Source: an uncultured archaeon (GTDB taxonomy: Archaea > Nanohalarchaeota > Nanosalinia > Nanosalinales > Nanoanaerosalinaceae). Taken from it: a stretch of DNA of 64,000 bases. The DNA is taken from assembly GCA_964517675.1 (NCBI GenBank), contig CAZFEL010000005.1, positions 9,250 to 73,249 of the forward strand, in the 5' to 3' direction. The position numbers were made by a program, and so were the translations under genes. The notes beneath the pieces are model-generated. The model was not told the origin of the DNA and ran no database searches. It saw nothing but the letters and a program-made list of their open reading frames with translations. This document shows positions 5,593 to 51,802 of the stretch, piece after piece; position 1 is the stretch's first letter, and each line of letters starts with the position of its first letter.

Positions 5593-6603
5593 ATGACCAT
5601 GGAACACGGCCAGGTCTCCACGGTTCTCACCGCAATATTCTTCCTCGGCAGCATCTGGATGCTCTGGCCGTTCTTCGGTGCGCTGCTCTTTGGCATGCTG
5701 ACCGCCTACATCCTCCTCTATCTTGAACAACGACTCAACGACCACCTCGAGAATCAGGTCATCAGCAACGCCGTTATCATAGTACTGATAACCGTCATCG
5801 TCGCTGGACTGCTCTATGGCGTCTCCTCAAGCGTCTCGACGTTCACCCGCAATATCGAACAGTTCATAACAACCATCTCGGGCAGTGCCTCCTACCTCAT
5901 CACCGTCTTCGATCTTCCAGGCTCACTTGCCAACGTCATCGATGCCATCCTCTCGGATATAAGCTCCCTCCTCCAGTCCACCCTGATCGGCGAGCTCAAG
6001 CGTGTCCCGAGCACCATTATCGATCTGACACTGTACGTCTTCGCAGTCTATTACTTCTACCGGGACGGCAAAGCATTGCGGACCAGGGTCTTCGGGCTCG
6101 TCGAACAGCTGGAGGAACGGAGACAGCACGTCGTCTTGACCCTTATCCGGAGCCTCGATGACCTCGCGCGGGGGGTCTTCCTCAACCGCCTCATCATCGC
6201 CCTCACCGTCACACTGCTGACAGGGACCGGGTACTTCCTCATGGGCATCGAGTTCTGGTGGGGCTGGGCCCTGGTGTCCGGTATGTTCTCCTTCGTCCCG
6301 TACTTCCAGCCATTCCTCGTGTACCTCCCGCTCGGCGGCCTCTACATGGCACTGGGGGACTTCTGGCTCGGGGTCATCATCATCGTCTACGGCATCCTGA
6401 TCCTGGACACCCTCCCGACCATCTTCATCAGACCCCATCTCGATACCCACAGGACGAAGGAACCGAACATCCTCCTGTTCCTCGGGTTCATAGCAGGCCC
6501 CATGGTCCTCGGGGCCAAAGGCATCATCCTCGGCCCGGTCATCCTCGTCCTCGCGAAGGACTTCTTCACAGAAATATTCAGCTACGATCAGGTACCTTCC
6601 TGA
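5593..6603 (+). CDS. AI-2E family transporter
   Basis: Polytopic membrane protein with FVPYF...P and LGFIAGPMVLGAKGIILGPVIL motifs. Confidence 0.85.
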   Translation: MTMEHGQVSTVLTAIFFLGSIWMLWPFFGALLFGMLTAYILLYLEQRLNDHLENQVISNAVIIVLITVIVAGLLYGVSSSVSTFTRNIEQFITTISGSASYLITVFDLPGSLANVIDAILSDISSLLQSTLIGELKRVPSTIIDLTLYVFAVYYFYRDGKALRTRVFGLVEQLEERRQHVVLTLIRSLDDLARGVFLNRLIIALTVTLLTGTGYFLMGIEFWWGWALVSGMFSFVPYFQPFLVYLPLGGLYMALGDFWLGVIIIVYGILILDTLPTIFIRPHLDTHRTKEPNILLFLGFIAGPMVLGAKGIILGPVILVLAKDFFTEIFSYDQVPS

Positions 6604-7036
6604 CCCCCATCCCACAGACAGGACACCGCTTTCCCTCGACATCGCGCCCGCAGTTCTCACACACCGTCTTCCAGGCGATCGAGTCCTCGATACCCTCCTT
6701 CAGGAACCCCTCACAGGACACATCGAGCTCCTCCGCCAGCGTCTGGATCGCATAATCATCCGTCACCAGCATCGCATCCTGACCGAGAGCCAGCGCAACC
6801 AGGGCCACGTCTGTCCCCGAGACATCGACACCTGTCCGCTCGACAGCCGCCTCGACACGTTCCCGGTCCTCCTCGGCCGGCTCCCTGATATCAACATCCA
6901 TCGTGTCGAACCGCCGACGGGCCTTGGTCGATGACAGCTCCGCCGTCACACCCGGGACCGTCATCATCTCCTCGAAGTCCAGCTCCATGCCGGCCCCGTG
7001 GATGATGACGTTCGCATCGATGACATGGACAGGCAT
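6578..7036 (-). CDS. nob1: Nob1-type PIN-domain RNase with Zn ribbon
   Basis: VIDANV, TDVALVALA, VTDDYAIQ, C-terminal CENCG...CPVCG. Confidence 0.85.
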   Translation of the reverse strand: MPVHVIDANVIIHGAGMELDFEEMMTVPGVTAELSSTKARRRFDTMDVDIREPAEEDRERVEAAVERTGVDVSGTDVALVALALGQDAMLVTDDYAIQTLAEELDVSCEGFLKEGIEDSIAWKTVCENCGRDVEGKRCPVCGMGVRKVPDRS

Positions 7037-7120
7037 GACCCCTACGTTGGGAGCAGGCATTGAAAAGGACTGGCCCCGAAGTATTTAAACGACAGAACAG
7101 CATCCGATACCAGTGACTGT

Positions 7121-41034: not shown

Positions 41035-42489
41035 CTACAGCCGCCGCGTCCTGCCCGGCATCGAGCGGACCATCGCATCATCCTTAGCGACCGGCTGGAG
41101 GTACGTCCCTTTCGCCTCACGTTCCCACCAGTCACCGGTCTCCTGCCAGGTCTCGATGTCTGTGAACTCGTACCTGAACAGCCGGGCACGGATCCGCTCC
41201 GGCGGGTCACCGTCGAACGGATCCTCAGCCAGCAGGGTCCTGATGTCCTCGTCCCCGTCCAGCAGCTTCTCGACCATCCTGAGGAACCACGGGTTCCGGT
41301 ACGGCGAGGACATCGCGGCGAACCACATCTGCCAGTCCAGGCGGAGATGATACGGCGCCCACTGGGGCAGCAGCCGGGAGACATCCGTGGGCTTGCCCTT
41401 GAACCTGTAGGCCTCCCAGTCAGCCTCGTCCGGCTCCTCCGACATCGTGGCCTCGAGGACGATCTCCGAGCGCTCCTTCGTGATGTGGCCGAAGGCACCG
41501 TAGGTGTTGACCAGGTGTACGGGGTCGAAGCTGGCGTTCATCCGCTGGCCCGAGGAGATCATGTTCCTGACCGGGTAATAGCTCAGCGCCACCACGAGCA
41601 GGCCCAGCCCGTAGACCCCAAGCTGGTGGACCGGGCCGGGCGGTACCGTAGCCGGGGCACCAAGCGGTAGGGCAGATAGCATCCCGTCCGACAGCGTCGA
41701 GACCGCCAGGACCGCCGTCAGCATGTTGAGCCATGAGAAGTTCCCCGACAGCATCAACCAGCCCTGGAACCCGATCGTCGCCAGTCCCGCAAATCCTGCA
41801 ATGGGCTGGGGGGCGAAGTACAGGAACGGGACCACCAGCTCGACGATATGGTTGATCAGCACCTCGAGACGGTGGACCGGTCGGGGCAGCTTGGCGACGA
41901 ACCACGACAGCGGGTTCGGCATCGGCTGGGTCTCGTAGTGGTACTGCATACAGGTCAGATCTCGCCAGCACGGGTCACCACGGATCTTGATCAGTCCAGC
42001 CCCAAACATCACCCTGAACAGCAGCCAGCGGAGCAGCCAGACCACGATCTCCGGTGCGGCCGTCCCGGCCCCGCCGAGGAAGATCGCGAGGAACCCTGTC
42101 TCAAGCAGCAGGGACTCCCAGCCGAACCCATAGAACGTCCGCCCGACATTGACGAAGGACAGGTACAGCAGCCACAGCAGCCCCCAGACCGCGACGACAG
42201 CCGCCATCCCGAGCCGGGAGGGCAGACCGAGGAAAGCGAGCAGGGAAAGACCCACACCGGACCAGGCCGCGACAGCGACCGCCCTGTCTGTCGGGACGAG
42301 ATGGAACAGGCTCGGTGCCTCCCTGAAGCCGACACTGTCCACCAGCTCCGTGAACGGCAGCAGGCCATCCTCGCCGTTGAGCGGTCGGAACTGGAAGGCA
42401 GCGACCAGGAACGCGATCAGGTATATGCCGGCCAGTCCCCGCTGGAAGACGAACCGGACCAGCCAGTAAGCGGACTCCTCCCACAGCAT
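41035..42489 (-). CDS. Lipase maturation factor (LMF1) family membrane protein
   Basis: FGWESLLLETG, RVMFGAGLIK, HYETQPMPN, PYHLRLDWQMWFAAM. Confidence 0.9.
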   Translation of the reverse strand: MLWEESAYWLVRFVFQRGLAGIYLIAFLVAAFQFRPLNGEDGLLPFTELVDSVGFREAPSLFHLVPTDRAVAVAAWSGVGLSLLAFLGLPSRLGMAAVVAVWGLLWLLYLSFVNVGRTFYGFGWESLLLETGFLAIFLGGAGTAAPEIVVWLLRWLLFRVMFGAGLIKIRGDPCWRDLTCMQYHYETQPMPNPLSWFVAKLPRPVHRLEVLINHIVELVVPFLYFAPQPIAGFAGLATIGFQGWLMLSGNFSWLNMLTAVLAVSTLSDGMLSALPLGAPATVPPGPVHQLGVYGLGLLVVALSYYPVRNMISSGQRMNASFDPVHLVNTYGAFGHITKERSEIVLEATMSEEPDEADWEAYRFKGKPTDVSRLLPQWAPYHLRLDWQMWFAAMSSPYRNPWFLRMVEKLLDGDEDIRTLLAEDPFDGDPPERIRARLFRYEFTDIETWQETGDWWEREAKGTYLQPVAKDDAMVRSMPGRTRRL

Positions 42490-43435: not shown

Positions 43436-44122
43436 TCAGAGGATCTCTACGATCTCGTCCTCTTCCTTGTTCGGGCGATACAGCTTCGCAGGTCGGTGGG
43501 AGACGTTCTCGGTCTTCTCACCCGTGTATTCGACCAGATCGAGTTTTTTCACCTTCCTGCGGAAGTTCCGCTTGTCGAACTCACGATCGAACACGACCTC
43601 ATAGACATCCTGGAGATCGGACATCGTGAACCGCTCCGGCAGGAAGGAAAAGACCGCCGGCGTGTACTCCATCTTCCATCGCAGCCGCTTTTTGGCGTAC
43701 TCGATGATGTCCTCGTGGTCGAAAGCGACATCCGGCAGATCGTAGGCCGAGTGCCAGGCCACATCGGCCGCATCCTCCAAGTCCACGTCCTCGTGGTTGA
43801 CCAGGGCGTAGTACCCGACCGTGATGACCCGTGTCCGTGGATCCCTGTCCGGGTCACCGAAGGTATACAGCTGCTCGAGGTAGACATCGGTCACACCGGT
43901 CTTTTCCTCCAGCACCCGGGTCGCTGCCGTCTCAAGGGACTCATCCATATCGATGAACCCGCCCGGAAGCCCCCAGTCGCCCCCGAACGGAGGCTCCGAC
44001 CGGCGCACAAGCAGCAGCTTCAGGTCATCTTCCTTGACTGTAAAGATGATCGTGTCCACTGTAACGGACGGGTGCTCGAACTCGGAGGGATCGTAGTCCT
44101 CCGGGACCTCATCTGCCGGCAT
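43436..44122 (-). CDS. nrtR: NrtR-type Nudix-related transcriptional regulator
   Basis: SVTVD, degenerate Nudix box GGF..DESLETAATRVLEEKTG, LEQLYTFG.PDRDPR, C-terminal wHTH DKRNFRRK...RPAKLY. Confidence 0.9.
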   Translation of the reverse strand: MPADEVPEDYDPSEFEHPSVTVDTIIFTVKEDDLKLLLVRRSEPPFGGDWGLPGGFIDMDESLETAATRVLEEKTGVTDVYLEQLYTFGDPDRDPRTRVITVGYYALVNHEDVDLEDAADVAWHSAYDLPDVAFDHEDIIEYAKKRLRWKMEYTPAVFSFLPERFTMSDLQDVYEVVFDREFDKRNFRRKVKKLDLVEYTGEKTENVSHRPAKLYRPNKEEDEIVEIL

Positions 44123-44125
44123 ACC

Positions 44126-44146
44126 TTCGTGTACGTCTGACACCAA
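44126..44146. promoter_or_regulatory. NrtR-like operator between TATA box and nrtR start
   Basis: TTcGTGTacgtctgACACcAA, same consensus as the two boxes at 49669-49711. Confidence 0.8.
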
Positions 44147-44160
44147 TTTAAAACCGTCGG

Positions 44161-45021
44161 TCAGTCCCCGCTCACCACCCGCAGCGGACTATCGGCCGGC
44201 CGCACCGTCGCCGTCGCGCCACGGGGGAACTCGAACAGCAGGTCCTCGCGGTCCCCATCCAGCGAGATGATGCCGTCCACGTTCATCGTCGAGCGGATCT
44301 CGAGTTCCTCTCCTGGCTCGAGGACACCGCTGTTCAGCTCCTGGTCCTCGTCCCTTATCGGCTCCCGCTCGATGTACCGGAGCTCATCCGCATCCACCGG
44401 GAACGCTCCATCGCTTCCCGGGATGTTGTTGTACCAGCCCGTCGAACCGGCCCCGCTCGTCACGACCAGACCGCTGTTCATGTGTTCTTCCTCTCGTTCA
44501 CCATCAGAGACAGTGTACCGAGCCACCTCCATGCTGTGCCTGTCCGCGATGAAGACCTCATTCAGCGCATAGGCTGTCTTCCCGCCGTACTCCAGCTCGG
44601 CCCGGGTCCACTCCTCGATCTCCGGGTCCTCAAGGGCCACATCGAAGGCAGCATCGATCTCATCGGCACCGTACTGGCACAGCGCACCGTGGCTGCCCGG
44701 GTCCGACCGGACCGGTAGCAGCGGGGTCTCGCCGTTGATGTAGTGGGACGTATCCAGGACCGTGCCATCGCCACCGACGCTGACAACCATGTCATAGCCC
44801 TCGACGGCCTCGTCCGGATCATCGGGGATCTCGACCTCATCGTAGGGCAGGTCCTCGTCCTCGAGGCGGTCACGGACAGCCTCGACGGTATTGTAGTGGT
44901 TCTGGTGGCCCTCCAGGATCGGCTCGTACTCGTCCTCCGGCAGTTCTTTGGCAGGATCGTCCATGTCCTCGCGGTAATGGTCCAAGGCGGTCCGCTTTCT
45001 GGCCAGCAGGACCTCATCCAT
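44161..45021 (-). CDS. nadK: NAD kinase
   Basis: VGGDGTVL, LNE, SGAGSTGW, LDG. Confidence 0.9.
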   Translation of the reverse strand: MDEVLLARKRTALDHYREDMDDPAKELPEDEYEPILEGHQNHYNTVEAVRDRLEDEDLPYDEVEIPDDPDEAVEGYDMVVSVGGDGTVLDTSHYINGETPLLPVRSDPGSHGALCQYGADEIDAAFDVALEDPEIEEWTRAELEYGGKTAYALNEVFIADRHSMEVARYTVSDGEREEEHMNSGLVVTSGAGSTGWYNNIPGSDGAFPVDADELRYIEREPIRDEDQELNSGVLEPGEELEIRSTMNVDGIISLDGDREDLLFEFPRGATATVRPADSPLRVVSGD

Positions 45022-46717
45022 CGAGATCGCCCTCCCAGCCGTTGATGATGGGTTCGCGGAAGTCTCGGCCGAAGGCACGGTCGCTGACCGCTATCACCGG
45101 TGGTGCCTGAACCCGCTTGAACGAGGAACCCTGGAACCGCTCGAATGTATCCATGACAGTCTCTTTGAACCGCTGGCGGTCGTACTCCTCGTGGATGTCC
45201 TCATCGAAGGCCTCCGGCAGCTCGTGGTCCTGGAACCGCTCGAGGAGATCGCCCGGGGACAGCCTGTCCTCGAGGAAGGACTGCACGATCGGGGCCACAA
45301 CATCGTACTCAAACGGGTCCTTTTGGTCCTCGGACAGCTCCGCGGACGGCGGGATCTCGAAGACGTCCTCCGGGATCGGAGCATCGTACCGCTCGTTGAC
45401 GTGCCGTGCCACATCGTATACCTCCGGTTTCGGCAGGTCACCGAGGATGGCCAGGCCGCCTGTCATGTCACCGTACAGCGTCGCATAGCCCAGTGCCAGC
45501 TCGGTCTCGTTGCCGTTCGAGACCAGCATGCCACCGGTCTCGTTCGAGGCCAGCATCGCCAGCATCCCGCGGGTCCTCGCATACACGTTCTCCCGGGAGA
45601 CATTGTCCTCTATCGGACCGTTCGCATCCTCGTAGGTCTCCAGTGTTTCCTCGTAGATCCCCTGGACCGGCATCTCGCGGTACTCCACACCCAGGTTCTC
45701 GGCCAGCTCCTCGGCGGCGTCTTTCGTCGTCGCGGAGTTGACCTCAGAGGGCATGCTGTACGCGATGACGTTGTCCGCGCCGACGGCCTCGACGGCGACG
45801 GCAAGTCCCAGGGAGGAATCGATCCCGCCCGAGATCGGCTCGATGATCGCATTGAATCCGGTCTTGTCCATGTAATCCTGTAGCCCGTAGGCCAGGGCAT
45901 CGAAGAGCTCGGCCTCCCGCGACCGCTCCGGCAGATCGATAGCCTCACCGTCCTCGAAGACGGCCTCGACGGTGTCCTCGCCGAACTGCTCGCCGGCAGC
46001 GATGACATCGCCGTCCGCATCCACGACCAGGCTCTCCCCGTCGAAGACGAGGACATTACCACCGACATCGGCCGCCCCGGCGGTGTTCGCATAGAGGAAC
46101 GGCACCTCGTGGTCCCCGACATGGCCTTGGATGGTCTTGAGGCGATCCTCCCGCTTCCCAACCTCGTATGGGGAGGCGTTGATGTTGACGATAACGTCCG
46201 CACCGTCTTCCGCCAGCTCATCGACCGGTGACCGGTCATAGGCCTCATCCCACATGTCCTCACAGATCGAGACACCGAGAGAGACCGCCTCCCCGTCGAT
46301 CTCGAGATCGATCGGGGCAGTCTCGTCGCCGGCATCGAAGAATCGGTCATCATCGAAGTACCGGTACGACGGCAGCAGGGATTTCTCGACGGTTTCTTTG
46401 ACCTCCCCCTCGTACAGCACCGCGGCAGCGTTGTACAGGCCGTCGTCATCCGCGTACCGGCCGTCGTCGACGAACCCGACCACGACGGCTGTATCATCCG
46501 CGTACTCAGCTATCTCGTCCAGCGCGGCCAGGTTCTGCTCGATGAATGCATCATCCTCGACCATATCCCCGACGGTATAGCCCGTCACCGCCATCTCCGG
46601 GAACACAAGGACGTCGGCATCGTCTTCCACCTCCAGGGTCGCGATGATCTCCTCGGTGTTGCCCGCGATGTCCCCGGTCACCGGGTTCATCTGGGCCATG
46701 CGGTAGGTCACTGTCAT
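45014..46717 (-). CDS. nadE: Glutamine-dependent NAD+ synthetase (nitrilase + synthetase domains)
   Basis: FPEM/K/ICEDMW glutaminase triad, ISGGIDSS, ENVYARTRG, GYATLYGD, PSAEL. Confidence 0.95.
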   Translation of the reverse strand: MTVTYRMAQMNPVTGDIAGNTEEIIATLEVEDDADVLVFPEMAVTGYTVGDMVEDDAFIEQNLAALDEIAEYADDTAVVVGFVDDGRYADDDGLYNAAAVLYEGEVKETVEKSLLPSYRYFDDDRFFDAGDETAPIDLEIDGEAVSLGVSICEDMWDEAYDRSPVDELAEDGADVIVNINASPYEVGKREDRLKTIQGHVGDHEVPFLYANTAGAADVGGNVLVFDGESLVVDADGDVIAAGEQFGEDTVEAVFEDGEAIDLPERSREAELFDALAYGLQDYMDKTGFNAIIEPISGGIDSSLGLAVAVEAVGADNVIAYSMPSEVNSATTKDAAEELAENLGVEYREMPVQGIYEETLETYEDANGPIEDNVSRENVYARTRGMLAMLASNETGGMLVSNGNETELALGYATLYGDMTGGLAILGDLPKPEVYDVARHVNERYDAPIPEDVFEIPPSAELSEDQKDPFEYDVVAPIVQSFLEDRLSPGDLLERFQDHELPEAFDEDIHEEYDRQRFKETVMDTFERFQGSSFKRVQAPPVIAVSDRAFGRDFREPIINGWEGDLDG

Positions 46718-46741
46718 ACACCGGGAATCGGGACGGGAGCC

Positions 46742-47410
46742 CTAAATTCCTTGCCCCCGCCCGTCGTGCTGTTTCAGGTCATCGTAGACCCTGCCGTCGA
46801 GGATCTCATCCGTCTCGAGGAACATCGCACCGCGGTCCTGCCAGTCCTCGAAGGCATCGTCACGCTCGTCCTCATCGAGGTGCTGGATCGCGTCCCCGGC
46901 CACGTAGACCTCGGTGTCTTCCTCGAGGAAATGATCCATCGCCTGGTCGAGACAGATCTCGGTGACGACACCGTAGACCACGACCGCGTCCGGGTCGACC
47001 GCGTCCATGTAGCCATCGAGGTTGACGTTGTCCCTGACATCCGGGGACCGCTTCTCGAAGATGACCTGGCGGCTGTTTTCGTTCGCGGCCACGATCTCAT
47101 CCAGCTGTTCAGCCGTCTTCTCGTCATCGACAGGCACGTAGATCGGGTCCCGGTCGGTCGCCTCGATCTTCTCCTGGCCTGGCATCCCGTCCACACAGTG
47201 GGGCGGGTAGACCTCAAACTCCTCGTCCCCTGTCACGTGAGCATCGACCGAGCCGGCCATGTACAGGCCCTCGTCAATGCCGTACTCAGTCAGGACCTCA
47301 AGTGCGTCCTCACGCTCGTCTGCGCCCGGAACATAGAGTTTTCCGTCTGGTTTGACGAAGTCATACTGCGTGTCGACGTCCCAGAACAGGACATCGTTGT
47401 CTGCTGTCAT
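46742..47410 (-). CDS. pncA: Nicotinamidase (isochorismatase family)
   Basis: DVDTQYDF..PDGKL.V, PPHCV, FEK, GVVTEIC; NAD operon context. Confidence 0.85.
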   Translation of the reverse strand: MTADNDVLFWDVDTQYDFVKPDGKLYVPGADEREDALEVLTEYGIDEGLYMAGSVDAHVTGDEEFEVYPPHCVDGMPGQEKIEATDRDPIYVPVDDEKTAEQLDEIVAANENSRQVIFEKRSPDVRDNVNLDGYMDAVDPDAVVVYGVVTEICLDQAMDHFLEEDTEVYVAGDAIQHLDEDERDDAFEDWQDRGAMFLETDEILDGRVYDDLKQHDGRGQGI

Positions 47411-48012
47411 TCGTGGTTCACCTCGTAGTCTTCATACCCACCATCAGGGAGACCTCCTGCCGCCCGGTACTGCTCGAAGGTCTCGACGATCTCATCCTCG
47501 CCGAGGTACGCGACCGGGTCATCCGCCTCGAGGAGCCCATCCCAGTCCTGTTCATCCAGCTCGAGCGGGGAATCAGGGTTCCAGGGTCCGAACCCGCTGA
47601 TGTCGATCGGGTCCTCGTCCTCCCGACGGAGGTACCGCTCAAGTTCGCAGGAGGTCTCGTGTCGCTGCTGTTGTTCCCGCGCCTGTTCATACAGGTCTTC
47701 CGGGACGTCCTCGCCTGCCTGCTCGCGGGCGGCGACCTCGACCCGGGCCTGCCCCAGGTAGGACTCGACCGCCTCCTCGGGCTCTGCGTCCATGGCCCAG
47801 ATCACGTCCCACTCGCGCTCGTGGACGCGGAAGGTATCGCTGAAATACTGCATGCCGATGCTCTCGGCCTGCTCCCGGCTCAGGCCGTACTCGTCCCGCA
47901 GCCGGCCACGGAAGGCCTCCGTGTACACGCTTTCCTTCCGGCCACGGGCCATCCAGTCCGCCTCGTACGGGTGTGTCAGGTCAACGGCGATCGCATCGTC
48001 ATCGTCTGTCAT
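47407..48012 (-). CDS. Acidic hypothetical protein inside the NAD operon
   Basis: 201 aa; 4-bp overlap with pncA. Confidence 0.75.
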   Translation of the reverse strand: MTDDDDAIAVDLTHPYEADWMARGRKESVYTEAFRGRLRDEYGLSREQAESIGMQYFSDTFRVHEREWDVIWAMDAEPEEAVESYLGQARVEVAAREQAGEDVPEDLYEQAREQQQRHETSCELERYLRREDEDPIDISGFGPWNPDSPLELDEQDWDGLLEADDPVAYLGEDEIVETFEQYRAAGGLPDGGYEDYEVNHE

Positions 48013-48022
48013 GGTAGCATCC

Positions 48023-48430
48023 TCAGCTCGGGACCGGATAGGTTATCTCCGGCGGTTCCTCATCGAGGTCCTGTAGTCGGTCGGCGACGTTCTCGACGTG
48101 GTCCCGGGTCCCGCGGTACGGCATCTCGAGGTACTCTTCAGGACTGACGGCGCCGTCCCAGTCGTTGAACCCGTCCCCGGACTCGATGCCGTCCGGGGTC
48201 AGTCGCTCCTCGTACTCGAAGGACATCCGGCCGCGCTCAGAGACCTCGAGCAGTCTCACCGGGTCATCGATCTCGTCCTGAAGCTCATCGAGGGCACCGA
48301 CAACGGTCGCGCGGTACTGCTGCCAGGTTTCCTTCCGCTGTTCATTTACCTCCTGGTAGACCGCATCGATCGCCTCCAGACGGGCCTCCTGGCGGTCGAT
48401 CTCCGGGTTGTATGCATCCAGATTGTCCAT
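48023..48430 (-). CDS. Acidic hypothetical protein inside the NAD operon
   Basis: 135 aa; begins 1 bp after the pncB stop. Confidence 0.75.
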   Translation of the reverse strand: MDNLDAYNPEIDRQEARLEAIDAVYQEVNEQRKETWQQYRATVVGALDELQDEIDDPVRLLEVSERGRMSFEYEERLTPDGIESGDGFNDWDGAVSPEEYLEMPYRGTRDHVENVADRLQDLDEEPPEITYPVPS

Positions 48431-48431
48431 C

Positions 48432-49658
48432 TCAGATCACCTGCTCCATGTGCTCGTCGATGTAGGTTTCGATCTCGGCAGGGTCCTGCTCGCGGCCGGT
48501 CTTTGCCATCGGCTCGCCGTCGACCTCGTAGATGTCGGCGGTACAGTGGATACCATCATCGAAGCTGCCGGCACCGACCCCGTGGAAGAGGTCATAGGAC
48601 TCACCGAACCGCTCCTCGGACTCCTGCCGGTACGTTTCCTGGGCCTCGACGAAGGCCCCGGCCTTGTCCGGGTCCCCGAAGCCACTGGAGAGGATGATCT
48701 CGGTGTTGTCACCGTATCCCTCCTCAATCAGCCGGTCGCGGAGCGCCTTGACCCCGGAGATGCGGACCCCTGTGCCGGTCTCGTACTCCCCAGCCTCCAG
48801 GTCGTCCGGCCGTCCGCCCTGCATGATGTTTTCCCCGCATGTATCCACGCGGAACTTCGCCGTCCAGTCATCGTCCCCGCGGGTCGCCTCGAAGTACGCC
48901 GCGATCTGGAGTGCCTCATCGATCTCCCGATTGAACGTATCGATCAGCGTCGTCCGGGGGATCTCCTCGTCCATGTGCGTATCGAACAGCTCCGCGGTCG
49001 CCCGGGTCGCGTCCTCGCGACCGTAGTCCTCGGAGCCAGCCAGGGTCAAGGTGAGGAAATGCGGCGTCGTGCCGACCCCCTCCGCCCCGATGTTCGAGGA
49101 CCCGACATCCGTCGAGGTCTGGACCGCTCCCGCGTCCAGGACCGCCTCTGCCAGCTCCTGGTCTTTCGACCAGTGGTAATGCCGGGCGCCAAAGTACAGG
49201 AACGGCACATCGGCCTCGTCATAGATCTCCCCGACCTTCTCGGCCGCCTCGAGCATGTCCTCATACTCAGGCGTCTCGAAGCTGTTTTTCTCGGAAAGGT
49301 GGTGGGACATCACGCCAAGGTACATCGTCTCCAGCTCCGTGACGTCGGTCGCATTGCCCCTGATGACCATCAAGGGCTCTTTGGTCTCGAAGGTATTCTT
49401 CTCCGTGAGGTATAGCTCGCCGCCGTTCTCGGAGAAATCCGGTTTCGCGTACTCCTCGAAGACTGCCTGGGCCTCCGATAGGGCCTCATCCGGGATCGTG
49501 CCCTCGCCGCGGGCGAAGACCTTGATCGAGACCTCCGGATCGATGTCGGCGCCCTCGAGGATCTCCCTGGTCCGCATGAAGTACTTATCCGTGTAGGGTT
49601 TGTGGTCCTCGGGCAGCTTGGCCCTGTATTCGTCCACCAGGTCGTCGTGGTCTGTCAT
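48432..49658 (-). CDS. pncB: Nicotinate phosphoribosyltransferase-like protein (type II PRTase)
   Basis: YTDKYF.RT..IL, ETMYLG, FGARHYH, GTTPH, LIDTF, RVDT, IILSSGF, GVGAGS. Confidence 0.8.
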   Translation of the reverse strand: MTDHDDLVDEYRAKLPEDHKPYTDKYFMRTREILEGADIDPEVSIKVFARGEGTIPDEALSEAQAVFEEYAKPDFSENGGELYLTEKNTFETKEPLMVIRGNATDVTELETMYLGVMSHHLSEKNSFETPEYEDMLEAAEKVGEIYDEADVPFLYFGARHYHWSKDQELAEAVLDAGAVQTSTDVGSSNIGAEGVGTTPHFLTLTLAGSEDYGREDATRATAELFDTHMDEEIPRTTLIDTFNREIDEALQIAAYFEATRGDDDWTAKFRVDTCGENIMQGGRPDDLEAGEYETGTGVRISGVKALRDRLIEEGYGDNTEIILSSGFGDPDKAGAFVEAQETYRQESEERFGESYDLFHGVGAGSFDDGIHCTADIYEVDGEPMAKTGREQDPAEIETYIDEHMEQVI

Positions 49659-49668
49659 CATGATCACC

Positions 49669-49711
49669 TTCGTGTGTATTAAACACTAACTTGGTGTTAC
49701 ATGTACACGAA
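49669..49711. promoter_or_regulatory. Tandem NrtR-like operators in the pncB operon promoter
   Basis: TTcGTGTgtattaaACACtAA (49669-49689) and TTgGTGTtacatgtACACgAA (49691-49711); TATA box at 49715-49722. Confidence 0.85.
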
Positions 49712-49785
49712 AGATTTATATAGGTAATTGTAGATCCAACACGAAGATTAACGGGTACGATCCCGCGACCAACAGAGCGGATCAT

Positions 49786-50513
49786 TCAGTCCGGCTCCCA
49801 GTCCACAACATCGACGTCCACCGCATCGAGCTGGCCGAAGCTCCTGATAACCAGGAAAGCGAACCCGATCTTGGCCGCTACATCGAAGACAAAGAACAGG
49901 GCCGAGGACGTCGTGAACCCGAAAACAGCATAGCCATCAGTGCTGAGGACCCACGCGAACGGATAGGCGAACCACACCAGGACGAGATAGTTACGCAACC
50001 GCATGAAGAGCTTCTTCGTCCTCCCGGGACGCTCATCAGCAGCCCTGGTCGCCTTCGCAACCATCAGATACAACAAGAGGGGCGAAAAGGAACGAAGATG
50101 CGATGAACGCCATGTGCTTGACCGTGCCAGCGGTCACCGTCGCGATGAACCCTGTCAGGATCATGAGGAAGTCAAGCACCATCATCCATCCCGCCAGGGC
50201 GGTCCGCTGAGTCAGCATGATGACACCGAGGACGAGGATCGGGGTGGTGATGCTCCACTCGAAATACCTGAGCCAGACGACCTCACGCCCACCTGCGGAC
50301 ATGATACCCAGCCCGAGCGAGATGAAAAATACGACACAGCAGCAATAAGAGGGACCATCACGGTGGGCGGCGTAGAAATCCTTGTAGCTCAGCCCTGTCG
50401 AGAACTCGCCCAGGCCTTCCTCGGTGTGTCTGTGCCTGTAGATGATGTAGAAGCCGCCGTCAGGAACAGGACAAACCGGCGAAATGGATTGTGCTGGCGA
50501 TCATTACAGCCAT
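49786..50513 (-). pseudogene. Frameshifted type-1 microbial rhodopsin
   Basis: Helix C WLRYFEWSITTP, helix F LRN...WFAYP, helix G FDVAAKIGF (Schiff-base Lys); about five indels needed to restore the frame. Confidence 0.85.
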
Positions 50514-50603
50514 GCCCCAACGTTGCCCACACTGCGATTTAAAGGCGCCGTCAGCACGGATTCCAAGCGCATTTATGTCAGCACCCACTGTCCTGGAAGA
50601 CTG

Positions 50604-51163
50604 ATGGATGAGGAAACACTCAAAAGCGGGATTGAGGAAGCACTGGAGGACGACGGTATCACCCTGGTGAAGACCTCCTCCAGCCGGTACCAGTCGACCA
50701 ACCTCACCATCATGGAGGCCCTCGTCAACGACCACGGGCTCCCCGGTGTCTATGTCACCGTCAACAAGCCCTACACCACCATCACCAGACTCCTCGATGA
50801 TAATGACATCGACCCCACCCGTCTCTTTTTCATCGATGCCATCAGCAAGGACATGAACGCCAAGCGGAAGGATGAGGACAACGTCATCTTCGTCGAGTCC
50901 CCGCAGCGGCTCACAGACACCTCGATCGTCATGACCGAGGCCGTCCAGGGCATGACGGATAAGGAAAAATTCGTCTTCTTCGATTCCATGTCCGTCCTCA
51001 CCATCTACAACGAGAGCAAACGGTCACCAAGTTCGCACACTACCTCACAGGCAAGATGCGCACATGGAACGTCGCAGGCGTCATCATCTCAGTCGAAGAC
51101 AAGATGAACGACGAGCTCATCGCCCACCTGGTCCAGTTCGTCGACAACGTCATCCAGGTCTGA
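50604..51163 (+). pseudogene. Inactive KaiC/RecA-fold protein, copy 1, with a 1-nt frameshift near 51020
   Basis: GVYVTVNKPY, FFIDAIS, FFDSMSVL; the frame is restored by one extra A in AAA. Confidence 0.7.
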
Positions 51164-51238: not shown

Positions 51239-51802
51239 ATGGACGGCAAGGAACTCGAGAACAAGATCGAGAAGGCACCCGAGCAACCGGGTATAACACT
51301 GCTCAAGACCTCCTCCGAGGACTACCAGGCAGTCAACATGGCGATCATGCGGTCCTTGGTTACGGACCATGACCTTCCAGGCATCTATGTCACCGTCAAC
51401 AAGCCGTACGGAACGATAACCAACGTCCTCGAAGAGAACGACATCGATGCATCGAAGATCTTCTTCATCGACGCCATCAGCGAGGACCTGAACGAGGAAC
51501 CGCCCGAGCGTCGGAAGAACGTCATGTTCGTGGACTCACCGAAGAACCTGACCGATATCTCGATCATCCTCTCGGAGGCCATCGATAACATGCCCGAGGA
51601 CGAGAAGTTCGTCTTCTTCGATTCCATGTCCGTCCTCACCATCTACAACGACAAAGAAGCCGTCACCAAGTTCGCACACTACCTCACAGGCAAGATGCGC
51701 ACATGGAACGTCGCAGGCGTCATCATCTCAGTCGAAGACGAGATGGAACACGATGTCCTCACCCATCTCACACAGCTCTGCGACAACGTCATCGACGTAT
51801 AG
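51239..51802 (+). CDS. Inactive KaiC/RecA-fold protein, copy 2
   Basis: Same motifs, no Walker A; 78 bp identical to copy 1 (51023-51100 = 51662-51739). Confidence 0.8.
   Translation: MDGKELENKIEKAPEQPGITLLKTSSEDYQAVNMAIMRSLVTDHDLPGIYVTVNKPYGTITNVLEENDIDASKIFFIDAISEDLNEEPPERRKNVMFVDSPKNLTDISIILSEAIDNMPEDEKFVFFDSMSVLTIYNDKEAVTKFAHYLTGKMRTWNVAGVIISVEDEMEHDVLTHLTQLCDNVIDV

Follow-up and report, generated by a model that had tools for sequence, protein, structure and literature searches.

A predicted NrtR regulon of NAD salvage genes in a nanohaloarchaeon, with operator boxes on both sides of the operon TATA box

Background

The regulation of NAD metabolism has been worked out in bacteria, with NadR, NiaR, NrtR and NadQ as regulators. 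The operator consensus of the NrtR family is a 21-bp palindrome with a GT-N7-AC core; among the regulons known from the cyanobacterial, Chloroflexi and Planctomycete groups, Nostoc has pncB-nadD-nrtR-nadE and Blastopirellula has pncB-nrtR-pncA, each with a site before pncB (Rodionov et al. 2008, PMC2330246). Two tested NrtR proteins are released from DNA by ADP-ribose. NrtR of Mycobacterium smegmatis is an autorepressor, and neither this protein nor NrtR of S. suis is an active hydrolase. In the crystal structure of AraR of Bacteroides thetaiotaomicron (BtAraR) with DNA, the residues K179, R180, N181 and K184 define the GTGT motif. Our literature search found no paper on archaeal NAD regulation or on NrtR in DPANN archaea. 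Among the latter, nanohaloarchaea are obligate symbionts with very few biosynthetic pathways.

Repressors of bacterial type on archaeal TATA promoters are normal for archaeal transcription factors and unsurprising in themselves. An operator between TATA box and transcription start blocks the recruitment of the polymerase, an operator over the TFB-recognition element (BRE) or the TATA box blocks TBP and TFB, and for several archaeal regulators sites upstream of the TATA box activate transcription.

We followed up a sequence-only reading of a nanohaloarchaeal locus. The window, i.e., the whole stretch of DNA analysed, covers 64 kb of a contig of ~458 kb; it contains a bacterial-type NrtR with four operator boxes, from which the protein would probably repress an NAD operon and its own gene until released by an NAD-derived ligand, by precedent ADP-ribose.

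Results and discussion

The NAD(P) salvage operon

An archaeal host was indicated by marker genes in the window: homologues of the RNA polymerase subunits Rpb1 and Rpb2, an ATP-dependent DNA ligase and an archaeal CCA-adding enzyme. Together with the nearest named relatives they assign the DNA to the chromosome of an archaeon, most probably a nanohaloarchaeon of the DPANN group. Seven genes form an operon on the minus strand with nrtR in the last position. Five are assigned to NAD(P) salvage and synthesis or their regulation, two are lineage-specific:

48432..49661, minus strand: pncB-like gene for a type II phosphoribosyltransferase, first gene of the operon
48023..48430, minus strand: gene for a 135-aa protein, function not assigned, conserved in the operon
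47407..48012, minus strand: gene for a 201-aa all-helical protein, function not assigned, conserved in the operon
46742..47410, minus strand: pncA-like nicotinamidase gene (isochorismatase family; PF00857, 9.4e-13)
45014..46717, minus strand: nadE, glutamine-dependent NAD+ synthase
44161..45021, minus strand: NAD kinase-like gene, its probable ATG at 45021 overlapping the end of nadE
43436..44122, minus strand: nrtR, 228 aa, Nudix-like sensor domain and NrtR-type winged helix

The pncB-like gene probably encodes a nicotinate phosphoribosyltransferase, judged from matches of its product to the NCBIfam model of this enzyme (PRK08662, 7.8e-32, under the curated cut-off), to Pfam QRPTase_N and to the PDB entries 2i14 and 1ytd, the latter being the Thermoplasma NAPRTase. 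The best PDB matches of the pncA-like protein were the pyrazinamidase/nicotinamidases 3s2s and 1ilw; NadE matched NAD_synthase (5e-48), CN_hydrolase and NF010588 (8.3e-137). The NAD kinase-like protein, with 286 aa as long as its orthologues, contains a GGDG motif in its translation and matched PF01513 (1.8e-6) and the NAD kinase structures 7r4j and 1suw. The pncB-like and NAD kinase assignments are based on sub-threshold or weak profile matches. Together, the Pfam, NCBIfam and PDB matches of the enzymes and the marker genes agreed with the sequence-only reading, which had proposed an NAD(P) salvage operon in an archaeal host. The encoded pathway is incomplete, as the operon does not contain an NaMN adenylyltransferase gene; a search of the six-frame translation of the window with the regular expression G-x-F-x-P-x-H-x-GH, an insensitive test, did not retrieve an NMN/NaMN adenylyltransferase.

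The 135-aa and the 201-aa proteins had no significant match in Pfam or NCBIfam, and the same kind of search was also empty for other uncharacterised operon genes in relatives. Among 5.8 billion proteins, the 135-aa protein had only five homologues, and its structure model was poor (pLDDT 55). For the 201-aa protein, seven homologues were obtained together with a confident AlphaFold model (pLDDT 82, pTM 0.76), to which no fold in the PDB corresponded at E <= 0.001. In the relative P0132, the 135-aa protein is fused to the 201-aa family.

The regulator

The NrtR open reading frame was submitted to the searches as 236 aa, including eight extra N-terminal residues. The N-terminal part is a Nudix domain (PF00293, 3.1e-18, 66.5 bits, cut-off 21.1, residues 33-148 of the submitted frame) and the C-terminal part the NrtR winged helix (PF21906 NrtR_WHD, 1.3e-25, 89.8 bits, cut-off 27), which aligned to the full profile (1-60 of 61 positions). 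PDB matches were BtAraR (5bs6, 1.3e-47) and NrtR of Shewanella (3gz5, 2e-43), and the Nudix region aligned with the Nudix domains of both structures. The equivalog model for the ADPR-responsive transcriptional repressor, NCBIfam NF050029, yielded 170.6 bits (E = 4e-50) against a cut-off of 400; since this score is under the cut-off, the protein is considered a relative within the family only and not an equivalog. The closest relatives of the protein were found in metagenome-assembled genomes (MAGs) of Nanohaloarchaea. These DPANN proteins are at present annotated as '8-oxo-dGTP diphosphatase' or 'NUDIX hydrolase'. The co-localisation with NAD genes, a feature of most but not all members of the family, is present, with the pncB-like gene, pncA, nadE and the NAD kinase gene sharing the operon with nrtR.

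The Nudix box reads G55-x5-E61-x7-R69-V-L-E-E-K74-x-G-V, hence two of the three glutamates of the REUxEE signature are replaced. This degeneration runs through the halophilic clade, more distant relatives retain an intact REUxEE. In the NrtR family an impaired Nudix signature is frequent, though it does not define membership. Because two catalytic glutamates are lost, the domain is probably a pure sensor in this clade. The recognition helix DKRNFRRK (residues 183-190) aligns with D178-K184 of BtAraR and presents K184, R185, N186 and R189 at the places of the GTGT-defining residues K179, R180, N181 and K184. Of 121 aligned sequences, 116 had the form DKRNFR[KR]K and five deviated from it at one position. 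A Nudix-wHTH regulator of NrtR type with a degenerate Nudix box, as had been read from the sequence, was thus confirmed by both Pfam cut-offs, the PDB matches and the replaced glutamates.

The nature of the ligand is the point on which an alternative carries most weight. The same regulator and operators may respond to 2'-phospho-ADP-ribose, O-acetyl-ADP-ribose, NAD, NaAD, NMN or an unrelated ligand instead of ADP-ribose, and the circuit would then sense something besides NAD breakdown. The ligand of the NrtR family is not fixed, as the best solved relative BtAraR senses L-arabinose, and proteins of the family have been recruited to other ligands. The low equivalog score points in the same direction, the NAD kinase gene in the regulon makes a phosphorylated ligand conceivable, and the release of MsNrtR in vitro required 50 mM ADP-ribose. 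However, all tested NrtR proteins linked to NAD genes respond to ADP-ribose, among enzyme families the Nudix domain is nearest to the ADP-ribose pyrophosphatase domains found in NadM-Nudix proteins, and the controlled genes are NAD genes, not sugar genes. We regard a different effector therefore as rather unlikely, and ADP-ribose, by analogy to the characterised proteins, as the presumable effector.

Operators and promoters

The motif TTNGTGTNNNNNNNACACNAA had three exact matches in the window, at 44126-44146, 49669-49689 and 49691-49711, the latter two in tandem with a period of 22 bp. Dinucleotide-shuffled windows contained on average 0.01 exact matches, and none of 100 shuffles had three or more. 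A fourth, weaker box with two mismatches to the pattern is located at 49725-49745 just upstream of the operon TATA box; all four boxes fit the palindrome TTnKTGT-N7-ACAMnAA. The operator feature of the NrtR family, a 21-bp GT-N7-AC palindrome, is hence present in four sites near the regulated genes. With a scoring matrix derived from orthologous loci only, the window excluded, the box at 49669-49689 was the top match of the window (25.7 bits), followed by those at 49725-49745 (24.2 bits), 49691-49711 (20.2 bits) and 44126-44146 (20.0 bits). The next best position in the 64 kb scored 9.9 bits, and the best scores of the shuffled windows had a mean of 9.8 and a maximum of 18.4 bits. The boxes and adjacent elements are:

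49725..49745: distal operator O3, TAATTGTAGATCCAACACGAA on the plus strand, at the place expected for a BRE, ends 2 nt before the TATA box
49715..49722, minus strand: TATA box of the operon promoter, TATATAAA
49691..49711: middle operator O2, exact match, begins 3 nt past the TATA box, at about -19 to +2 relative to the inferred start
49669..49689: proximal operator O1, exact match, 22 bp from O2, about +4 to +24 in the inferred 5' leader
49662..49668, minus strand: GGTGATC, Shine-Dalgarno-like, between O1 and the ATG
44147..44153, minus strand: TATA-like box TTTTAAA(T), abutting the nrtR operator
44126..44146: nrtR operator, exact match, fills the space from the TATA-like box to 3 nt before the nrtR ATG

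The order at the operon promoter is distal box, TATA box, middle box, proximal box, GGTGATC and ATG, thus the TATA box is flanked by operators on both sides. GGTGATC would act as ribosome-binding element. Both TATA elements were read from the sequence; they have fixed and conserved distances to operators and start codons, and the transcription starts were derived from the TATA spacing alone, that of the operon with the usual archaeal TATA-to-start distance. The pncB-like gene probably starts with the ATG at 49661 and nrtR with the ATG at 44122; the longer frames with GTG or TTG starts are less likely, and the alternative TTG would fall within the operator. The spacing of TATA-like box, operator and ATG suggests a leaderless nrtR transcript, in which case the operator spans about -23 to -3. 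A bacterial promoter scan did not find a sigma-70-like promoter at the sites, and the 64-kb window had no match to Rfam families.

The boxes were compared with ten related loci (244 kb, GC 41-64%), gathered by exact-protein look-ups. Genome and metagenome scans were not suited to close footprinting: the relatives among the matches listed had at most 60% identity and were mostly bacteria. With matrices rebuilt each time without the scored locus, the top-ranked matches in the ten loci were situated at the operon and nrtR promoters only. A TATAWAAA-type box occupies the same place in all ten aligned operon promoters. The position of the middle box is conserved in the alignment, the proximal box is kept in ten of ten loci, the distal box is at the same position in eight of ten, and GGTG(A) is present in nine of ten. 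Upstream of nrtR, nine related loci have an A/T-only box at the TATA-like position, and in nine a box ends 2-5 nt before the start codon. The loci L086 and L173 contain neither the distal box nor the nrtR box. In the locus L081, another HTH gene adjoins nrtR. The same motif and TATA-box-ATG module was also present in Woesearchaeota and Pacearchaeota, and the motif adjoins nrtR in bacterial relatives (each among the matches listed).

The sequence-only reading had described three GT-N7-AC-type operators, two of them a tandem pair with a 22-bp period, lying between TATA boxes and start codons and joining operon and nrtR in one regulon. All three were recovered as exact matches and conform to the published NrtR family form; the count has to be raised to four by the distal box, which is additional to the boxes between TATA element and start codon at both promoters. 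The tandem spacing was correct, and the whole arrangement including the nrtR box is kept in related archaeal loci. The motif scan it had proposed, run on the 64-kb window and the ten related loci, placed the top matches at the two promoters only.

A chance origin of the boxes was ruled out by the shuffles, the ortholog-matrix scores and the leave-one-locus-out ranking. An RNA hairpin was rejected in favour of a signal on the DNA level, since the variable half-site positions change independently (with complementary bases in 10, 17 and 8 of the 34 sites).

Proposed circuit

NrtR dimers would bind the four palindromes. In the operon promoter, O3 would cover the BRE, O2 the region from just past the TATA box to the start, and O1 would lie within the leader's first 25 nt, while the fourth palindrome would occupy the gap between the TATA-like box and the start codon of nrtR. 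Bound NrtR would be expected to deny TFB and RNA polymerase access to the two promoters; from the box positions we infer a repression of the operon and a negative autoregulation of nrtR. A small NAD-derived ligand would enter the Nudix-like domain and release NrtR from the DNA, so that consumption of NAD may lead to a rise in salvage and NADP formation. That the circuit monitors host or defence NADases, as suggested earlier, is speculation.

The distal box, which precedes the TATA box, could have a different role: it may recruit TBP and TFB for activation while the downstream boxes repress, so that a dual regulator switches the operon both ways. The absence of the distal box together with the nrtR box in L086 and L173 presents it as a separable element. 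Yet occlusion is favoured over recruitment, because the distal box ends 2 nt from the TATA box and overlaps the BRE position, and characterised NrtR proteins are all repressors; we consider the activating role improbable. Most improbable of all is that the palindromes serve another factor, form leader RNA hairpins or are chance repeats. In favour of such readings, the proximal box, which is probably transcribed, could form a 7-bp stem, and a second HTH gene stands beside nrtR in L081. Against them, motif and nrtR occur together in bacteria as well as in DPANN archaea (among the matches listed), the boxes match the published family consensus and also the GTGT preference expected from the conserved recognition helix, three of the four lie wholly or nearly wholly upstream of the inferred transcription start, the half-sites are without compensatory change, and the chance expectation is 0.01.

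Origin and significance

A tentative scenario, possible but less probable than the repressor circuit, is that NrtR, its operator and a compact promoter module of TATA box, 2-3 nt, 21-bp operator and start codon were passed from bacteria to an early member of the DPANN archaea and were kept in Woese-, Pace-, Nano-, Aenigm- and Nanohaloarchaeota. The halophilic branch would have lost the catalytic glutamates of the sensor, and the operon would have gained the two lineage-specific proteins, fused in one relative. If so, the regulon would be among the few transcription-factor regulons conserved across reduced DPANN symbionts and would govern the rebuilding of NAD from host-derived niacin, and the two proteins could be new parts of NAD salvage.

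The locus presents a concrete, testable regulon in a nanohaloarchaeon with an unusually clear operator geometry, the TATA box having operators on either side, and could serve as a simple model for the blocking of the archaeal basal transcription machinery by a bacterial-type repressor. The derived matrix is usable for the annotation of NrtR regulons in DPANN genomes, and the two co-regulated uncharacterised genes are candidates for NAD-related functions. A new regulon member of the known NrtR family is well supported; the mechanism is not new, and the understanding of how NrtR works is unchanged by these results.

Comparison with known systems

MDR1, LrpA, Phr and TrmB are examples of archaeal repressors that bind at the TATA box or directly behind it, the same mechanism as is deduced here from the operator positions. 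Their protein families and effectors are unrelated to NrtR, and none of them is known to govern NAD metabolism. NadR, NiaR and NadQ (7q91) are functional analogues linking the expression of NAD genes to pyridine nucleotide levels. NadQ has a C-terminal winged helix in common with the window protein (1.5e-19 over residues 134-217), but all three have other sensor domains and operators, and none has been described in archaea.

NrtR of Shewanella oneidensis (3gz5/3gz6/3gz8) and of M. smegmatis are Nudix-wHTH repressors, and ADP-ribose releases both of them from DNA. They differ in their operators, e.g., the mycobacterial GTTTTCGA-N7-TCGAAAAC, and in their targets prs-nadV and nadABC; the window protein falls short of the mycobacterial-type NrtR equivalog model. 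The arabinose-gene repressor BtAraR (5bs6/5dd4), the best match among solved structures, has the helix DKRNFRKR compared to DKRNFRRK here, with contacts that define GTGT, and likewise tandem sites (3 bp apart in BtAraR) and a degenerate Nudix signature. Its effector L-arabinose and its sugar-gene targets set it apart from the NAD genes targeted here.

Closest are the bacterial regulons named in the Background (cyanobacterial, Chloroflexi and Planctomycete groups), which share the protein family, the 21-bp GT-N7-AC palindrome, a site before pncB and the position of nrtR within a salvage operon (PMC2330246). Present-day relatives from these phyla have the identical TTAGTGT-N7-ACACTAA box near nrtR (among the matches listed). 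The nanohaloarchaeal locus differs in its archaeal host, in an operon that includes an NAD kinase gene and two uncharacterised genes and does not contain nadD, and in three boxes that bracket a TATA box, the boxes being set to the TATA box and a presumably leaderless start instead of -35/-10 elements.

The NAD(P) salvage operon and its surroundings

All genes of the operon region are located on the minus strand, with nrtR, the gene of the Nudix-wHTH protein, as the last gene.

Genes of the predicted salvage operon in order of transcription (window positions)
48432-49661, minus strand: pncB-like type II phosphoribosyltransferase (NCBIfam PRK08662, 7.8e-32, below cut-off; PDB 2i14 and Thermoplasma NAPRTase 1ytd)
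48023-48430, minus strand: uncharacterised 135-aa protein (Pfam/NCBIfam: no family match)
47407-48012, minus strand: uncharacterised 201-aa protein (Pfam/NCBIfam: no family match)
46742-47410, minus strand: isochorismatase-family nicotinamidase (profile and PDB matches)
45014-46717, minus strand: glutamine-dependent NAD synthase (NF010588, 8.3e-137)
44161-45021, minus strand: NAD kinase-like protein (PF01513, 1.8e-6; PDB NAD kinases; GGDG motif)
43436-44122, minus strand: NrtR, 228 aa (NrtR_WHD PF21906, 1.3e-25; NUDIX PF00293, 3.1e-18; both above curated cut-offs)

The probable starts of the first gene and of nrtR are ATG 49661 and ATG 44122. A longer, TTG-initiated nrtR ORF would start within the operator, and ATG is the start in orthologues. 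The predicted route leads from nicotinamide via nicotinate to NaMN, and from NaAD via NAD to NADP. For the NaMN adenylyltransferase step no gene was found in the operon; according to a paper on cultivated nanohaloarchaea, the enzyme is present elsewhere in their genomes. The 135-aa and 201-aa proteins have 5 and 7 homologues, respectively, among 5.8 billion proteins. One relative, the 273-aa protein P0132, combines the N-terminal portion of the 201-aa family with the ERGRMSFEYEE...YRGT block conserved in the 135-aa family, a fusion implying that the two predicted proteins act together. The predicted model of the 201-aa protein is confident and all-helical, and a PDB fold search with it gave no match.

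A bacteriorhodopsin-like gene (49786-50302, minus strand), immediately upstream of the operon promoter, is broken into two ORFs that lie in different frames and match positions 63-140 and 141-220 of the Bac_rhodopsin profile; the first ~60 profile positions were found in neither ORF. The split probably reflects either a pseudogene with a frameshift or an error in assembly. Next come, on the plus strand, two neighbouring KaiC/RecA-like ORFs that are paralogous: 51239-51802 has clear matches to DUF7504 and DUF7090, and 50484-51107, with only sub-threshold matches to DUF7090 and DUF835, looks degraded or mis-started. On the minus strand, 41035-42489 encodes a 484-aa membrane protein matching both LMF1 lipase maturation factor domains (1.8e-63 and 4.6e-48), a family best known from eukaryotes.

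Predicted operators in the window

There are exactly three copies of the palindrome TTNGTGT-N7-ACACNAA in the 64 kb of the window, at 44126-44146, 49669-49689 and 49691-49711, the very copies named in the sequence-only reading, compared with a mean of 0.01 matches in dinucleotide-preserving shuffles of the window. The 22-bp period of the tandem pair and the TATATAAA box at 49715-49722 (minus strand), also described in that reading, were both seen in the sequence; the copy before nrtR is abutted by TTTTAAA (44147-44153). Tolerating two mismatches added a single site, 49725-49745. The sites were scored with a position weight matrix built from the other loci only, the window being excluded.

Predicted operators and their scores with the other-loci matrix
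49669-49689: proximal box, operon promoter, 25.7 bits
49691-49711: middle box, operon promoter, 20.2 bits
49725-49745: distal box, operon promoter, 24.2 bits
44126-44146: nrtR box, 20.0 bits

The next best position in the 64 kb reached 9.9 bits, and the best score per shuffled window was 9.8 bits on average and 18.4 bits at maximum. Given these scores from a matrix of conserved loci, the predicted operators number four, not three; the operators proposed before stand, their count does not.

Conservation of the promoter layout

The window was compared with the loci of nine close NrtR homologues, giving ten loci with 244 kb. The neighbourhoods of the nine contain archaeal markers, e.g., ribosomal protein S6e, eIF2-gamma, Trm56 and family B DNA polymerase, and the synteny from pncB to nrtR is retained. 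The order of elements in the operon promoter is common to all ten loci across a GC content of 41 to 64%: distal box, 2-3 nt, TATAWAAA-type box, 3-4 nt, middle box, 1-2 nt, proximal box, GGTG(A) and ATG, with the distal box present in eight and GGTG(A) in nine of the ten. At the nrtR promoter (nine loci) an A/T-only box abuts one operator, with 2-5 nt between the end of the operator and the start codon. Neither the distal box nor the nrtR box is present in loci L086 and L173; nrtR adjoins the preceding gene in L086 and overlaps it in L173. With leave-one-locus-out matrices, the top matches in all ten loci were confined to the operon and nrtR promoters. The operon of L081, from a Nanohaloarchaea MAG (GCA_034190465.1), has three extra genes (regions 1620-2009 and 6097-6830): a 129-aa gene between the operators and pncB, and a DUF7471 gene and an HTH (HVO_0163-type) gene directly before the nrtR operator. 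This locus lacks nadE.

The core of the box is invariant at T1 T2, T5 G6 T7, A15 C16 A17 and A20 A21, while position 4 is G or T and position 18 C or A. The variable half-site positions change independently, being complementary in 10, 17 and 8 of 34 sites, a pattern to be expected of DNA read by a protein dimer but not of an RNA hairpin.

The regulator

The assignment to the NrtR-type Nudix-wHTH regulators made in the sequence-only reading was borne out by the two Pfam domains and by the top solved relatives, BtAraR of Bacteroides thetaiotaomicron (5bs6, 1.3e-47) and Shewanella NrtR (3gz5, 2e-43). BtAraR belongs to the same family as the window protein but is an arabinose repressor. The Nudix box, G55-x5-E61-x7-R69-V-L-E-E-K74-x-G-V, has other residues in place of two of the three REUxEE glutamates, so that the box had rightly been called degenerate. 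NrtR sites are 21-bp palindromes with a GT-N7-AC core (Rodionov et al. 2008, PMC2330246). In the BtAraR-DNA crystal structure, the wing and four residues of the recognition helix (K179, R180, N181 and K184) define the GTGT motif; the aligned residues of the window protein are K184, R185, N186 and R189, within DKRNFRRK. Of 121 aligned sequences, 116 have DKRNFR[KR]K as recognition helix, and the remaining five deviate from it at one position. As judged from its sequence, every testable feature places the window protein in the NrtR family.

Proposed mode of regulation

In archaea, transcription usually begins about 26 nt downstream of the TATA box, which would place the start of the operon transcript near 49692. 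The middle box would then cover about -19 to +2 and the proximal box +4 to +24, within a leader of about 31 nt ending in GGTGATC, and the distal box would occupy the BRE position. For nrtR, a start at or beside the ATG is predicted, giving a leaderless transcript and placing the nrtR box at -23 to -3. Bound NrtR dimers would shut out TFB and RNA polymerase, the usual mode of archaeal repressors. Two promoters would drive nrtR: that of the operon, by read-through, and its own, under autoregulation.

ADP-ribose releases the NrtR proteins of Synechocystis, Shewanella and M. smegmatis from DNA, and on this precedent it may also release the window protein. The nearest enzyme relatives of its Nudix domain are ADP-ribose pyrophosphatase domains. 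Caution is advisable with this putative effector because the family includes the arabinose sensor BtAraR and because the window protein falls short of the equivalog model for ADP-ribose repressors (170.6 vs 400 bits). The suggestion of the sequence-only reading that the cell may monitor NAD breakdown by host or defence NADases is neither supported nor contradicted by the data.

Distribution, evolution and comparison with known regulons

Archaeal markers in the window are Rpb1- and Rpb2-type RNA polymerase subunits, ATP-dependent DNA ligase, archaeal CCA-adding enzyme, GatB/E and HerA. Among the matches listed, the NrtR homologues closest to the window protein (62-94% identity) are from hypersaline metagenomes, including two Candidatus Nanohaloarchaea MAGs; the next-closest belong to Aenigmat-, Woese-, Nano- and Pacearchaeota and are intermixed with proteins of Chloroflexi and other bacteria. 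In the homologue set P0001-P0120 the ~46 closest, halophilic sequences carry, with few exceptions, a degenerate Nudix signature (R-[VIT]-L-x-[ED]-K), whereas most of the more distant relatives from Woesearchaeota, other DPANN, Chloroflexi and other bacteria have an intact REUxEE (RELxEE). This contrast suggests that an enzyme-regulator became a pure sensor in the halophilic branch. In a rough neighbour-joining tree, calculated without support values and only indicative, the halophilic sequences group together in a single clade whose sister is a Woese-/Nanoarchaeota group, and both are nested among bacterial sequences. This topology fits an old transfer of NrtR into DPANN rather than a recent one.

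An identical TTAGTGT-N7-ACACTAA box adjoins nrtR, among the matches listed, in Chloroflexi, Planctomycetes, Acidobacteria, Anaeromyxobacter, Woesearchaeota and Pacearchaeota. Non-halophilic DPANN loci show TTTATATA, 2-3 nt, the operator, and an ATG abutting or overlapping it; this compact module of TATA box, NrtR box and start codon was located in Woesearchaeota, Pacearchaeota and a further archaeon (L001 6014-6034, L004 9970-9990, L012 3561-3581). In L001, a Woesearchaeota locus, a perfect box precedes the quinolinate synthase gene nadA (ORF 6040-7092), which makes de novo NAD synthesis the predicted target there, and thus regulon content differs between lineages, as it does among bacteria (Rodionov et al. 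2008, PMC2330246). L174, from a MAG labelled Aenigmatarchaeota, has an operon of nadE, nadM-Nudix, NAD kinase and nrtR; this locus gave no match to the NrtR motif. A different palindrome, ATTAACATGTTAAT, is found directly before nrtR, in the region 2540-2617, and may represent an operator that has diverged.

Since bacterial-type transcription factors are the majority in archaea, the principle is not surprising. No paper on an archaeal or DPANN NrtR was found in the literature searched, and a study of Sulfolobus Nudix proteins explicitly reports no HTH-fused member in Sulfolobus. In cyanobacterial and planctomycete NrtR regulons, as in the window, pncB is preceded by a site and nrtR is part of the salvage operon (Rodionov et al. 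2008, PMC2330246), hence this gene arrangement is already known from bacteria. New are the DPANN archaeon as host, the arrangement of the predicted boxes about a TATA box and a putatively leaderless start, and the NAD kinase and two uncharacterised genes within the predicted regulon.
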